From positions 115,506,001 to 115,570,000 of the forward strand of contig OX597819.1 in NCBI GenBank assembly GCA_951406725.2: 64,000 bases of DNA, read 5' to 3'. Positions 1,609-8,572 of this stretch are shown piece by piece. A program made the position numbers and the translations under genes. Source of the stretch: Octopus vulgaris (taxonomy: Eukaryota). The notes under the pieces are model-generated. The model saw only the letters and a program-made list of their open reading frames with translations, was not told where the DNA came from and did no database searches. The number at the start of each line of letters is the position of its first letter. Position 1 is the stretch's first letter.

Positions 1609-1954
1609 CATGCTGATATTGCTGCCGCTCCACTCACCCTCACTTTAGACCGTTTGAAACATGTGGATATGTCTTTTCCATTTCTAAGTTCTGGATATAA
1701 AATCGTTATTAAAAAACCAGATTTGACACAAGTGACACGTGGACTTTTCATTGTTTTAAAACCATTCACAACTCCTGTTTGGTGTTTCATCATATTAGCT
1801 TATGTACTGACCGGTAGCTTTCTGGCAATAATCGGTCGAATTAGTCCGTATGAATGGACAAACGCGTCGGACGTGGATGTTGATTCGGAAAAACGTAGCA
1901 GTTTTAATTGTATGAATAGCTTTTGGTTCACCTTCAGTACATTCATGTGGCAAG
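1609..1954 (+). CDS. iGluR/IR-like receptor copy 1, exon encoding end of S1, M1 and pore loop
   Basis: Acceptor attttcAG at 1607-1608 and donor CAAG|GTAAGT. Translates HADIAAAPLTLTLDRLKHVDMSFPFLSSG...PFTTPVW...SPYEW...NSFWFTFSTFMWQG, which matches the iGluR motifs ADIAxAPLTIT..R..VDFS.PF, PF...VW and SPYEW. Confidence 0.95.
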
Positions 1955-2256
1955 GTAAGTGATGCTGTGTCACAATGATGGCACTTACCTTTCATTTTTG
2001 TTACTATAGGTTCACCTATTTTCTTAAAGTACGCAAATGTATTTTACCAATCCAGTCCAGACCAGTCTTAATTCTCAAGTCCATTATCAAATTCAAACCC
2101 GAGTTACGTGCGTGTGTTTGTAACTGTGTAAGACTGTGAATGCATACTGTATCTGAAGCACAACTGTGTTTAAATCTAATTGTATTTTCTTTACCAAGGT
2201 CCTTTCTATATTTTCGTCTTGTTTATTGTAATAAATCTTTAGTTAAATATATTCAA

Positions 2257-2635
2257 CTAGCAGTATCGCCCGGCGTTGCTCGGGTTTGTAAGGGAAATAA
2301 CTATATAAGCATTTTAGAGAGTTATAGCCAAAAAAAATGCATTAAAAATGGAAAAAAAAATGATGGTCATTTTTTTTTTAAATCGTTGACTCATCGTAGA
2401 CATTTTTAGAGAGTTATATAATAGCAAAAAATGCATTAAAATGGAAAAAAATGATGGTAAATTTTTTTAAAAATCGTAGACTCATCGTAGACGCGCGCTA
2501 ATACCCAGAAGGGCTCGATATGAATCACGACTATAAGATAACCGGTTTTGGTTGAACTGCACCGCAAAATGTGGGAGTAGTTAGGAATCTAAATCGTAGG
2601 AGACAGACACACAACTTCACTTTTATGAATAAAGA
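2257..2635 (-). mobile_element. Non-autonomous Helitron in an intron of receptor copy 1
   Basis: Minus strand starts A|TC and ends with the hairpin cccgagcaacgccggg followed by CTAG|T. Both ends are shared with the helicase-bearing element at 31761-32607. Confidence 0.8.
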
Positions 2636-2837
2636 TGAGAATATTATATACTAAATTTATATTGATGCTCTATTGTATTAAAGTATTAATACTATTAAAG
2701 TATTTATGCATTTAATACGAGCGATTATGTATATTTTATATAATATATTATCATTAATATCAGGAAATCAATATTAGAAAATTCTTCAGAAAGATATATG
2801 TGTGTAAAATAATTGTTGTATTAAAAATATAAATATA

Positions 2838-3279
2838 GGCGTAGGAGTGGCTGTGTGGTAAGTAGCTTGCTTACCAACCACATGGTTCCGGGTTCAGTCC
2901 CACTGCGTGGCACCTTGGGCAAGTGTCTTCTACTATAGCCTCGGGCCGACTAAAGCCTTGTGAGTGGATTTGGTAGACGGAAACTGAAAGAAGCCCGTCG
3001 TATATATATATATATATATATATATATATATATATATATATATATATATATATATATATATGTGTGTGTGTGTGTGTGTGTGTGTGTGTGTGTATGTTTG
3101 TGTCCCTGTGTTTGTCCCCCCAACATCGCTTGACAACCGATGCTGTTTCGGCAAAAGAGAACCGATAAAATAAGTACTTGGCTTACAAAGAATAAGTTCT
3201 GGGTTCGATTTGCTCGACTAAAGGCGGTGCTCCAGCATGGTCGCAGTCAAATGACTGAAACAAGTAAAAGAGTAAAAGA
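2838..3279 (+). mobile_element. tRNA-derived SINE family A with internal (TA)n(TG)n
   Basis: Head with A-box (TGGCTGTGTGG) and B-box-like (GGGTTCAGTCCC) motifs, conserved body and an AGTAAAAG tail. At least 8 copies in the window. Confidence 0.85.
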
Positions 3280-3825
3280 CTAACTTCTAAACACTTTTGG
3301 AGAAAGATTTGGTAATAGGCGAGAGCTCTAATACCACGAACTTTATTAATTGACAAAAGTGTTTATTATCTATATTATTCAACCCCTCAACAAAAACATA
3401 CTATTATTCTTTGATAATATATACAGTTTAAATTGACTCTGTATGAGAATGAGGTCAAAGGGAAATAATACCTATGCAATACTCAGCCGGTTACACTATT
3501 GTTCGATGAATACGGAATTCTATTTATCAAACAACTGGAAAGTCCATCGTCTAAAATGACGGAGTATTCAATTGCTGTGTGTTCGTTTATAGCATTAGCC
3601 AATCAGAACGTTCTTTGAGAATTCACTGTTATGTTATTAATTAGTGTCTCCTCATTATCACTAACAGTGACATTTATCTCTAAACTCCTTACAAATTACC
3701 TGGTTGGAAATTGCATCGGATTCCCTGTATAATTACCAAAATGATTTTTTTCTTAAAGGTGGAATTAACAATCTCTTCACTGGATAATATTTCGAATCGT
3801 TAATGACGACCAAATCTTTGGAGAT

Positions 3826-5859: not shown

Positions 5860-7296
5860 ACAGATGTGTGTGTATGTGTGAGTGTGTGCGTGTGCGTGTG
5901 TGTATGTGTGTGTGTGAGGCGAGGTAAAAAAACAAAAAATATATGTATGTGTTAGTGTGTGCGTCTGTGTGTAGGCGTGTGAGGTAGGGCGAGACGGTGG
6001 TCAGCATAGCAGCAGCATAGCAGACAAAGGTCAGTAGTGAGAAAAGGGAGGAAGGAGGAAGGGAGGGAGGGGAAGGGGTGGGGGCGTATGTAGCGTGCCA
6101 GCGTGTGTTGAGTGGTAGTGTGTGTGTGTGTCCAGTGTCGTGGTAGTATTAGTGGCGAGTAGATTGAATGTGTGTAAGAGTGAGGTATATGTTTAAGCAA
6201 TGTGTGTATATGTGTGCGCGTGTGTGTAACGAAAAAAAAGGGGGGGTTTAGGAAAAGGACTCCAGCGGAGGGGAAGATGGAGGAGTGGTCCCGCGGAGAC
6301 GGGCGTGGGAAAACCCAACGACACGCGACATCCCAGGAACGGGCGGGAGGTCTCGTCGGATCCAAGGGCGAGGTGCATGCGGGCGCATGCGTGCGCGAAC
6401 CGGCGCAAACGCGTGTGTGCGCGAGCCTGCGAGTGTGCGCGTACGTATGTGTGCGTGTGGATGTGTGAGTGTGTCTGTGTGTATGTCTGGGTGGCAGTGT
6501 GTCCGATGAATGTATGTGAGTATGTGTGTATATATGTGTGTGCATAGATGTATGTCCGTGTGTGTGTGTGTGTGTGTATGTGTGTATGAGTGTGTATGTA
6601 TGTACGTGTGGGTGTGGGGAAGTGTGTGTATGTGCATGTGTGTGCGCGAACATACAGGTGTGTGAGTGAGTGCGTGTGTGTGTATGTATGTGTGAGTGTG
6701 TATGTATGTGTGTGTAGGATGCATGTATGTGTATGGGTGTATGTATGCGTGTGTGTATGTATGTATGTGTACGTGCGTGTGTGTGTGTGTATGCGTGTAG
6801 GTGTGCGCGTGTGCATGCGTGCATGTATGTGCGTATGTGTGTGTGTGTGCATGTGTGTGGGTATATATGTGTGTGCGTATATGTGTGTGTATGTGCGTAC
6901 ATGTGTGTGTGTGTGCATGTGTGTGTGTAGGTGTGTAGGCGTGTGTGTATAGGTGTATGTATGTAAGTATGTATGGGTGTGTCCGTGTATGTGTGTATGT
7001 ATGTGTGTGTATGTAGCTGTGTGGGCGTGTGTATATGTGTGTGTATGTAGGTGTGTAGGCGTGTGTATATAGGTGTATGTATGTATGTCTGGGTGTGTCC
7101 GTGCATGTTTGTGTGTGTGTGTGTGTGTGCATGTGTATGTAGGTGTGTGTGTACGTGTGTAATGTATGTGTGTATGCGTGTGTATGCGTGCGTGTGTGTA
7201 TGTATATTTATATATATAGATATATGTATATATATATATATATATATATATATATATATATATATATATATATATATATATATATATATATATATA
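5860..7296. repeat. Long degenerate TG/TATG low-complexity tract ending in (TA)n
   Basis: Direct reading; it explains the His/Thr- and Val/Cys-rich spurious ORFs. Confidence 0.9.
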
Positions 7297-7361
7297 GGTC
7301 CCGGGTTGAGTCGGGGTTAACCACAGTAAATAAGGTACTCAATACATAGCAGAGTAAATTA

Positions 7362-7492
7362 ATTTATTTTATAGAAGGATCTTCTACAGGACTAGAACTG
7401 TTTCATTCAAAAGAAATCATCAGGAGCTTCCTGATGATTTCTTTTGAATGAAACAGTTCTAGTCCTGTAGAAGCTCCTTCTATAAAATAAAT
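7362..7492. repeat. Palindrome of about 130 bp between (TA)n tracts, with a hammerhead core in each arm
   Basis: Mirror centre ggagcttcc near 7426. The right arm reads CTGATGA-TTTCttttGAAT-GAAACAGTTC at 7431-7459. Confidence 0.85.
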
Positions 7493-7823
7493 AAATATAT
7501 ATATATATATATATATATATATATATATACATACACACACATATATATTTTCCCCTTCATCTTTTATATTTCAAAATTTGATTTGTATAGATGTCTAATC
7601 TTTTCCAGCTACATATATATATATGTATATATGTGTATATATATATATATATATATATATATATATATATATATATATATATCATATATATATATAATCA
7701 TATATATATATATATATATACATACACGTATATATATATGTAATACATACACATACACACACATATATTCATCGCGAACACATACATAGGTATTCATATT
7801 CATAATTATATATATATTTTTAG

Positions 7824-8572
7824 GATATCGTATTGCGCCTCGGTCTTATTCTGGAAGAACACTGAGTGTGTTTTGGTGGATATTCGTCTTGGTAACACTG
7901 GTTCTTTATATCGGTTCCATGGCAGCGCACTTACTGGCAAACAGACCAAAAAATGAGTTCCTACCATTCACCACTTTTCATGAAATGGCCAAACAGAGTG
8001 AAGTCCGTTATGGGGCCGTAAAATCAGGTTCAACCGTTCGTTATTTTAAAAGGTCATCAGTTCCTGTGGAAAGACATATTTATGAAAACATCATGAAGGA
8101 CCAAAGCGTTTTGACATCATCAGTAAGGGAAGGTTTGCAAAGGGTGCGAGAATCAGAAGGCAAGTATGCCTACATTATGGAAGGCGATCTGGCTGAATTT
8201 TTAGTTAGTCAAAAACCCTGTGACCTTATGGTAGTCGGAGATATAGGAGATCACTCTTATTCCTTTGTCACGCAGAAGAATTCTTTACTGAGTAATGAGG
8301 TAAATCAAGCTATTATTAGACTAAAAGAAATGAATATTATTAAAAAAATACACGAGAAATGGATGCTGGGTGAATGTCACACGAAAATCTTTTGGGAAGT
8401 CTTCATGGATGGTCAAGCGTACTTTGATAAACTGACTTCAGCACATGACGACATCTTCAGCGGTCTTAGCGTCACTTTATTTGCTGGCCCTTTGATAATA
8501 TTGCTCATTGGAATGATTATAGCTGGATCTTTATTGGTGGCTGAAGTGTTCCTGTCTGGCGGAGGTATCAAG
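7824..8572 (+). CDS. iGluR/IR-like receptor copy 1, exon encoding M3, S2 and M4
   Basis: Acceptor ttttAG at 7822-7823 completes the phase-1 Gly codon from 1954. Reads [52 protein letters not shown] and a hydrophobic M4. Donor AAG|GTAAAT (GTAAGT in the paralog). Same 749-nt length as the paralog exon. Confidence 0.95.

Follow-up and report, generated by a model that had tools for sequence, protein, structure and literature searches.

Two neighbouring genes in a 64-kb stretch of Octopus vulgaris DNA (the window) encode glutamate receptor subunits in which a tryptophan occupies the Q/R site, an arginine stands at the +4 position and the gate motif SYTANLAAF reads LYIGSMAAH. These residues raise the question of which class of ionotropic glutamate receptor (iGluR) the subunits belong to, and whether such a pore could still conduct. 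The explanation that we favour, and regard on the whole as somewhat probable, is that the two genes are recent tandem duplicates encoding iGluR subunits of the Phi class (GluF, subclass IV) that lack an amino-terminal domain (ATD). In these subunits the Trp and the loss of the +4 acid probably offset each other and leave a channel that conducts.

Two tandem genes for short receptor subunits

All exons identified lie on the forward strand. For copy 1 (CAI9724888.1), the exon at 1609-1954 encodes the end of S1 with the equivalent of GluA2 R485, the pre-M1 segment, M1 and the M2 pore helix, and includes the Q/R-site Trp codon at 1948-1950 and the next Gln codon at 1951-1953. The exon at 7824-8572 supplies the rest of the pore loop with the +4 Arg codon (7829-7831), the M3 gate, S2 with its Gly-Ser-Thr and Glu ligand residues, and M4. 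The last coding exon, located with tblastn of P0007, spans 11852-11905 and encodes a 17-residue cytoplasmic tail and the stop; the three exons equal residues 113-494 of P0007. Copy 2 begins at 48945-49049 with an ATG and a hydrophobic stretch that may act as a signal peptide, judging from its hydrophobicity and from a helix at residues 14-33 in the AlphaFold model. A predicted micro-exon of 13 codons (54966-55004; AG/GT ends, phase 0) would join this stretch straight to S1 with no ATD between. Then follow the exons at 56914-57105 (first part of S1; Pfam Lig_chan-Glu_bd E=2e-14, AG/GT ends), 59269-59614 (end of S1, M1, M2 and the Q/R-site Trp) and 62788-63536 (+4 Arg, M3 gate, S2 and M4). A last exon of copy 2 was not found inside the window, whose end is at 64000. 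The five copy 2 exons form an uninterrupted frame of 477 codons, whose translation agrees with P0008 at 470 residues; reading frames are open in both copies.

The predicted subunit of about 494 aa has the S1-M1-M2 loop-M3-S2-M4 architecture of the iGluR superfamily, as seen from Pfam (PF10613 and PF00060 both score over the cut-off), from the AlphaFold helices at 167-190, 213-224, 236-265 and 444-473, and from Foldseek matches, which are AMPA receptors. The ATD is absent, and the Pfam search gave no match to PF01094. The subunit shares with GluA2 and GluK2 the fold of the ligand-binding and transmembrane domains and the ligand residues (phmmer E=5e-80; Foldseek E=7e-36, 33% identity), whereas it differs from them in its missing ATD, in Trp and Arg for Gln and Asp, in six of the nine gate residues, in a longer S2-M4 linker and in a very short cytoplasmic tail of about 20 residues. 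Intact ligand-binding residues include R127 (equivalent to Arg485), E347 (equivalent to the acidic residue 705), Gly-Ser-Thr at 296-298 and Y373.

Pore and gate residues

Because the pore loop is interrupted by an intron, the reading of its residues depends on the splice junction. The upstream exon of copy 1 ends in TGG CAA G|gt and the downstream exon opens with ag|GA TAT CGT, giving a phase 1 splice. This splice is real, since the contigs of all 4 runs, which come from 4 studies, depart from the genomic sequence at 1955 and resume with the letters of 7825-7854; the first 30 letters of the downstream exon are the loose ends of these contigs. The RNA origin of the runs is deduced from the spliced contig ends, no run being annotated as RNA. 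The comparison covered the stretch of the copy 1 exon 1609-1954, and the lack of a contig matching copy 2 throughout among those listed has no bearing on copy 2 expression.

As the initial annotation had claimed, the spliced pore stretch is identical in both copies (44 residues), and both carry the Trp, the Arg and LYIGSMAAH. In the HMMER alignment to GluA2 chains FMWQG lies over FMQQG and the octopus gate over SYTANLAAFL, free of gaps, which places W226 at the Q/R position and R230 at +4. The AlphaFold model, with the pore helix ending at 224 and M3 beginning at 236, puts W226 at the tip of the re-entrant loop. The count of six changed gate residues likewise stands: the changes include the S615 hinge, T617 and N619, the Ala618 hinge has become Gly, and the gate rings 617 and 625 have become hydrophobic (Ile and Leu; rings and hinges as described in PMC12074995). 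The three residues kept are the conserved Tyr, Ala621 and the lurcher Ala622.

Placement within the Phi class

To place the subunits, 116 of 200 proteins were retained (70 removed with <330 profile columns, 14 as fragments or near-duplicates), of which 49 sequences and 418 columns were analyzed with IQ-TREE by fast search with SH-aLRT and aBayes support, without bootstrap. XP_014783750.1 of O. bimaculoides, which the supplement of PMC8437780 lists as GluFIV_Obi, is present in the tree as P0010 and clusters with copy 1 (99.8/1). The lophotrochozoan short-receptor clade to which they belong (89/0.996) is joined by echinoderm and hemichordate relatives at 97.6/1, and in a tree that contains no labelled IR, delta or amphioxus sequences it is distinct from the bird kainate-binding proteins and from AMPA-like and kainate-like receptors. 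The 97.6/1 clade excludes P0021 and P0024; deeper nodes have support of 76-87. The echinoderm and hemichordate sister group would be Phi, although none of the crinoid and hemichordate proteins in the 97.6/1 clade matched by accession the 14 GluF accessions of PMC6307864.

Two Phi traits are present in the octopus subunits: Gln is absent from the Q/R site, where Trp stands instead, and SYTANLAAF is weakly conserved (3/9). Two other assignments were rejected. The AMPA class, which the database name 'glutamate receptor 2' suggests, does not agree with the separate clade, the lack of PF01094, the Trp, the Arg and the 3/9 gate; membership in the vertebrate kainate-binding proteins does not agree with the bird proteins lying outside the clade. 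Both gene and class have thus been named already, and this is no new receptor type. Zeng et al. 2021 (PMC8437780) extended the Phi class to molluscs and covers the same gene family, whose O. bimaculoides member falls in the same clade and has pore and gate motifs identical to those found here; tandem duplication of GluFIV genes is reported for the king scallop as well. The paper lists one O. bimaculoides GluFIV, whereas the O. vulgaris window has two tandem copies, and its accessible part treats ligand residues but neither pore nor gate nor the lack of an ATD. Copy 1 shares about 90% identity with P0009 of O. bimaculoides.

The unusual pore is not confined to octopods. Among the 34 clade members, 28 have the Q/R-site Trp, none has an acid at +4 and 19 have Arg there; the mean gate match is 3.85/9 and all 34 are at most 530 aa long. 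Since these proteins were collected with the Octopus subunit as query, the sample is biased, nine being octopod proteins or their two closest relatives, and one or both of the alignment rows P0040 and P0075 look shifted by one column; the remaining 25 members have Trp in 19, +4 Arg in 11 and an acid in none. Members with the Trp were found among annelids, nemerteans, brachiopods and molluscs. Trp and loss of the acid arose once, in one clade, and their co-occurrence counts as one event, not 28. Neither the absence of the ATD nor this clade-wide sharing of pore residues had been noticed in the initial annotation.

Deuterostome Phi subunits resemble the octopus subunits in lacking Gln at 586 and in a poorly conserved SYTANLAAF, worn in some of them, but mostly keep the ATD (at least 330 aa listed in 10 of 14; Ramos-Vicente 2018, PMC6307864). 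The 11 sister-group proteins have Leu or Phe at the Q/R site and an acid at +4 in 7 cases, in contrast to the lophotrochozoan clade, where the first is mostly Trp and the second never acidic. The 2018 study discarded sequences with fewer than 4/9 gate residues, a filter that would leave out the octopus subunit (3/9), and Epsilon subunits were the only ones that it tested; the Phi branch is largely uncharacterized (PMC10861852).

Constraint on the pore region

The two copies differ at 32 of 365 residues. The chance that one chosen stretch of 44 residues is identical is p=0.013, and an identical run of at least 73 residues arose somewhere in 1.8% of 100000 random placements. By itself, however, paralog identity is only modest evidence because the copies diverged recently, with a dS of about 0.11 and flanking introns that are 89-97% identical. 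Apart from ligand-site and dimer-interface positions, the copies are nearly identical. Within residues 211-268 (M2-M3) the copies have four synonymous and no nonsynonymous differences, a pattern with p about 0.002 when tested against neutrality and Fisher p=0.019 when compared with the remaining gene. M2-M3 is under purifying selection, and this synonymous-only pattern, together with the distant relatives, is stronger evidence for constraint than paralog identity. The earlier argument from paralog conservation against decay was therefore correct as to the constraint, but leaned on an identity that carries little weight alone. The same pore motif is present in O. sinensis, O. bimaculoides, Argonauta and all 13 members of the P0011 cluster, and identity to two Argonauta proteins is 52/56 and 51/56 in M2-M3, compared with about 65-70% in S1 and S2. 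Beyond octopods the gate varies, P0011 keeping 6/9 and P0030 4/9.

Recoding of the adjacent CAA codon by A-to-I editing had also been proposed for inspection. In the contigs of the 4 runs, which drop rare variants, no other letter was found at the Trp or Gln codon, and A-to-G changes restore the canonical residue at none of the 8 changed key sites.

A probable compensating pair in the pore

An altered block or selectivity, as predicted initially, is likely, whereas the rarity then implied is not borne out, these being Phi-class traits noted in part in 2018 (PMC6307864). The prediction of a non-conducting receptor from the bulky Trp fails as a sole inference: a conducting pore is possible despite the Trp because, in the available text of PMC2217257, homomeric GluK2 Q590W is functional and carries current, with a spermine Kd of 190 pM and a modelled aromatic cage. 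In the same text, E594A, E594Q and E594W each abolish block, so that the Q590W and E594 mutants each mimic one octopus pore change. In the literature searched, part of it available as excerpts, we found no test of Trp combined with a basic +4 residue, nothing on Q586W, and no current recorded from any Phi subunit.

According to the mechanism that we propose, the subunit would bind glutamate or a similar amino acid and line a ligand-gated cation pore. The Q/R-site Trp side chains would form an aromatic ring in the cavity that alone would trap cytoplasmic polyamines very tightly, and the loss of the +4 acid, here replaced by Arg, would remove the electrostatic pull that polyamine block requires. 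The channel would then conduct, its inward rectification would be weak or absent, and its divalent or anion selectivity would be changed. Its gate may be re-tuned rather than broken, given the retained Tyr, Ala621 and Ala622, the Gly hinge and the hydrophobic rings at 617 and 625. Against this stand the six differing gate residues out of nine and a gate that is not fixed beyond octopods.

Alternatively, and possible though somewhat unlikely, the subunit acts only in a heteromer, where, like an insect tuning IR, it contributes the ligand site and two of the pore walls and leaves most of the gating to canonical-gate partners. The wide gate variation over the clade is what would be expected if a partner bears the constraint. 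The ATD, however, is a usual surface for heteromer selection, and its loss takes that surface away; moreover, the 64-kb window contains no partner gene. Insect tuning IRs likewise combine a reduced ATD with a degenerate gate motif and a hydrophobic Q/R residue, and function obligately as heteromers with motif-keeping co-receptors, but their 'wildly divergent' residues contrast with a Q/R Trp that is far more fixed (28/34), and IRs group with delta receptors (bioRxiv 10.64898/2026.09.30.755715). The octopus subunit has 33% identity to GluA chains and, in the accessible part of PMC8437780, is classed as Phi, not IR.

A further alternative, distinctly unlikely in our view, is a membrane protein that binds amino acids but does not conduct, or opens only rarely, and that, like vertebrate kainate-binding proteins or delta receptors, serves ligand buffering or non-ionic signalling. 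Vertebrate kainate-binding proteins are short, lack the ATD and are not known to pass current when expressed alone. The bird 'GLRK' proteins P0023 and P0024 have the same short architecture, with a hydrophobic Q/R residue and a degenerate gate, but their position outside the clade makes the likeness convergent or older. The hydrophobic Ile and Leu rings and the six gate changes could keep the pore closed, and across the clade the ligand site is better conserved than the gate; yet in octopods no part of the protein is more conserved than pore and gate, a constraint for which a dead pore would have no use, and the cytoplasmic tail is short, at about 20 residues. Invertebrate delta receptors, moreover, turned out to be active channels (PMC10861852). 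We found no relevant literature on pore transplants of kainate-binding proteins.

It is hardly credible that the residues reflect decay of a dying duplicate, an assembly or splice artefact, or A-to-I editing: cephalopods recode many transcripts, and identity could be inherited in copies this young, but the open frames, the spliced contigs with unvaried Trp and Gln codons, the motif shared with relatives, the synonymous-only change in M2-M3 and the failure of A-to-G changes to reach a canonical residue rule this out, low-level editing of the Gln codon being all that contigs would let escape.

Implications

A bolder proposal, tentative and rather unlikely as a whole, is that lophotrochozoan GluF is a natural, phylum-spanning Q/R-Trp mutant with a built-in suppressor: ATD-less glutamate-gated channels whose Trp ring would cage organic cations, whose +4 Arg would keep polyamines out and may admit anions, and whose gate, in octopods, would have been remodelled with a Gly hinge and hydrophobic rings. 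If true, this would add a fifth functional type to the AKDF channels, and SYTANLAAF would be dispensable for gating in a homomeric iGluR.

The gap is a real one, with no Phi subunit recorded in the literature searched, and the octopus pair, being short, intact and expressed (the splice being seen for copy 1), is a handy entry point. The lophotrochozoan branch puts two textbook rules to a natural test: that block and selectivity are set by the Q/R and +4 residues, and that gating requires SYTANLAAF. Many molluscs and worms share the odd pore, which may leave the channel functional but subject to a different type of block.

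Two gene copies in tandem

The window is animal DNA with many microsatellites and transposon remains, and a Phi-class (GluF) ionotropic glutamate receptor gene is present in it twice, the two copies (copy 1 and copy 2) lying on the same strand about 57 kb apart. The copy 1 exon at 1609-1954 ends in TGG CAA G followed by a GT donor, and the exon at 7824-8572 follows an AG acceptor and starts with GA TAT CGT; the spliced frame yields a stretch of 19 residues and, further on, one of 12. The same 44 residues are encoded by copy 2 (59269-59614 plus 62788-63536), which is almost entirely inside the window. 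Together with a signal-peptide-like exon (48945-49049), a 13-codon exon (54966-55004) and an exon for the ligand-binding half S1 (56914-57105), these two pore and gate exons amount to 477 stop-free codons. Three copy 1 exons correspond to residues 113-494 of the O. vulgaris protein CAI9724888.1. Contigs from four of four runs (four studies) span copy 1 1608-1955 or both its ends, and their loose ends carry the sequence of the following exon and of the S1 exon upstream. These exon-exact joins indicate spliced transcripts, the RNA nature of the runs being itself a guess. One contig (run X12) matches copy 1, yet has copy 2 letters at window 1736 and 1753, and another (run X2) has three differing letters at 1722-1724 that give residues of the O. 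sinensis protein; allelic variation, gene conversion or the merging of contigs could each account for these differences at 1722-1753.

Matches to Pfam Transposase_1 and HTH_48 mark the remains of Mariner/Mos1-type transposases on the reverse strand at 21162-22081, where they are split across frames, and at 38408-38743. A Pif1 helicase fragment of the kind that Helitrons carry (Pfam; 31837-32388, reverse strand) adjoins a tandem array at 32616-34355 with copies about 470 bp apart, and the pore-loop intron of copy 2 contains part of a retroelement (60051-60865, reverse strand) that includes a zf-RVT domain. A repeat of about 380 bp, with several copies 95-98% alike (16028-16937, 37874-38257, 43154-43543), two of which form the long inverted repeat at 16028-16937, is probably a young non-autonomous DNA transposon.

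Architecture and residue assignment

The protein lacks an amino-terminal domain (ATD): Pfam returns ligand-binding and channel families only, and the O. sinensis, O. vulgaris and Argonauta relatives are 476-496 aa long. An AlphaFold model (mean pLDDT 78.5, pTM 0.58, 32 sequences) contains M1, a pore helix (213-224), M3 (236-265) and M4, and its Foldseek matches are chains of AMPA receptors, the best at E 7e-36 with 33% identity. The ligand residues Arg127, Gly-Ser-Thr 296-298, Glu347 and Tyr373 are kept. When the O. sinensis protein P0003 was aligned to GluA2 chains with HMMER, the octopus motifs fell gap-free on FMQQG and SYTANLAAFL. This places Trp226 at the Q/R site and Arg230 at +4, with six of nine gate residues changed, and together with the splice-supporting contigs it confirms the assignment made in the initial annotation. 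GluA2 numbering follows that annotation and the cited papers, except for positions 478-485, 625 and 732, which were counted or follow general usage. The S2-M4 linker (window 8382-8470), from the last S2 cysteine to M4, consists of some 30 residues, many of them aromatic or acidic; it is longer than that of kainate-like receptors, is common to bivalve relatives and has low model confidence.

Constraint, divergence and editing

Across their 365 shared residues the two copies show 32 differences (dN 0.046, dS 0.106), and pieces of their flanking introns are 89-97% identical. The copies are thus young, and their identity, which had been offered as an argument against decay, is by itself weak evidence: its chance over the 44 residues is p=0.013, and that of a 73-residue identical run anywhere is 1.8%. 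More telling of constraint are residues 211-268, where four synonymous and no nonsynonymous differences occur (p about 0.002 versus neutrality; Fisher p=0.019 versus the remaining gene), a pattern that also argues against plain gene conversion. M2-M3 identity to the Argonauta proteins is 52/56 and 51/56, with S1 and S2 at about 65-70%. Outside octopods the gate drifts: two more distant relatives (P0011 and P0030, 51% identical) keep FMWQGYR and match the gate at just 6/9 and 4/9 positions. Taken together, these data show that the subunit encoded by copy 1 is intact, spliced and under constraint, and that its clamshell is of the amino-acid-binding type.

Cephalopods show extensive editing, and A-to-I recoding of the adjacent CAA codon had been raised. 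In the contigs of all four runs no other letter is listed at the Gln or Trp codon, and the canonical residue is out of reach of A-to-G recoding at all eight changed sites. Overall, the earlier interpretation is supported in part: it stands for the residue positions and for constraint, is weakened in the weight placed on paralog identity, and gains no support from these contigs for CAA recoding.

Immediately before the ligand-binding Arg, copy 1 has Thr-Leu-Asp (1642-1650) and copy 2 Asp-Ser-Asn (59302-59310). The residue in the middle corresponds to GluA2 Leu483, a dimer-interface position that controls desensitization, and the kinetics of the two copies may therefore not be the same. The two Argonauta proteins (P0004 and P0005) have neighbouring accessions, are 67-69% identical to the octopus proteins and do not match the octopus copies one-to-one in the tree. 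In P0005, the one Argonauta protein with Cys at +4, the ligand Arg is replaced by His, Thr655 by Ala and Glu705 by Asp, so this protein may bind another ligand.

A clade of short Phi-class receptors

Sequence searches returned many relatives of 430-520 aa, those named coming from bivalves, gastropods, a chiton, a brachiopod, a nemertean and an annelid. The short relatives form one clade of 34 (FastTree, 116 of 200 proteins, support 0.987), recovered at 89/0.996 in an IQ-TREE tree of 49 proteins; there it groups with proteins of crinoids and hemichordates (97.6/1), with bird kainate-binding, kainate-like and AMPA-like proteins outside. All 34 members, a few of them partial, have at most 530 aa. 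At Q/R, 28 members have Trp, five Leu and one Gln; at +4, 19 have Arg and none an acidic residue, and the gate matches on average at 3.85 of nine positions. Eleven sister proteins have Leu or Phe at Q/R and an acidic +4 in 7 cases; among the other 71, Gln is found at Q/R in 45, an acidic +4 in 58 and a perfect gate in 43.

The O. bimaculoides member XP_014783750.1 is GluFIV_Obi in the supplement of PMC8437780, which describes four subclasses of the Phi class in molluscs. According to PMC6307864, which excluded sequences with fewer than four of nine motif residues, Q586 is absent from all Phi subunits and SYTANLAAF is poorly conserved in some. Mollusc-specific GluR-m clades were defined by Andouche 2021 (as cited in PMC11682238), and the Phi branch has been described as largely uncharacterized (PMC10861852). 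The clade placement, the GluFIV listing and the class traits make the database name 'glutamate receptor 2' misleading. The tandem octopus pair is new and the gene class already known: the gene family, the counterpart of this gene in another octopus and the absence, at class level, of Q586 and of a conserved gate have all been published. The literature covered, with few subscription papers, contained no clade-wide Trp at Q/R, no loss of the +4 acid in the clade, no ATD loss in lophotrochozoan GluF and no recording from any Phi subunit.

Implications for the pore

By analogy with mutant kainate receptors, we lean slightly towards a conducting subunit that would line a ligand-gated cation channel whose filter is unusual. 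GluK2 with Trp at Q/R forms functional homomers. They bind spermine about 6600-fold more tightly than the wild type (Kd 190 pM), which was attributed to four indole rings that face the cavity as a cage, and polyamine block is abolished once the +4 glutamate is neutralised (PMC2217257, PMC2931155). A pore with both a Trp ring and an acidic +4 should thus spend most of its time blocked, and an acid at +4 is never found in the Trp-bearing clade. We propose that Trp and the lost acid may be a compensating pair, which would give weak rectification, with the Arg ring perhaps adding some anion permeability. This is a hypothesis, because the two changes count as a single evolutionary event and the double mutant did not occur in the literature passages covered. 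GluA2 closes at T617, T625 and M629, with hinges at S615, A618 or A622 (PMC12074995). The octopus gate has Ile at 617, Gly at 618, Ala at 621 and 622 and Leu at 625, residues that are compatible with a hydrophobic gate still able to bend, but also with one that seldom opens.

A subunit working in heteromers only, a reading that overlaps with the conducting one, appears distinctly less probable; the same trio of traits, namely loss or reduction of the ATD, a poorly conserved gate and a hydrophobic side chain at Q/R, occurs in insect tuning IRs (bioRxiv 10.64898/2026.09.30.755715). A non-conducting role, which the gate residues would also fit through rare opening, seems unlikely. It would resemble that of vertebrate kainate-binding proteins, which are short, lack an ATD and are not known to conduct when expressed alone. 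Decay or artefact is highly improbable given an M2-M3 region with no nonsynonymous differences between the copies and exon-exact joins in every run.
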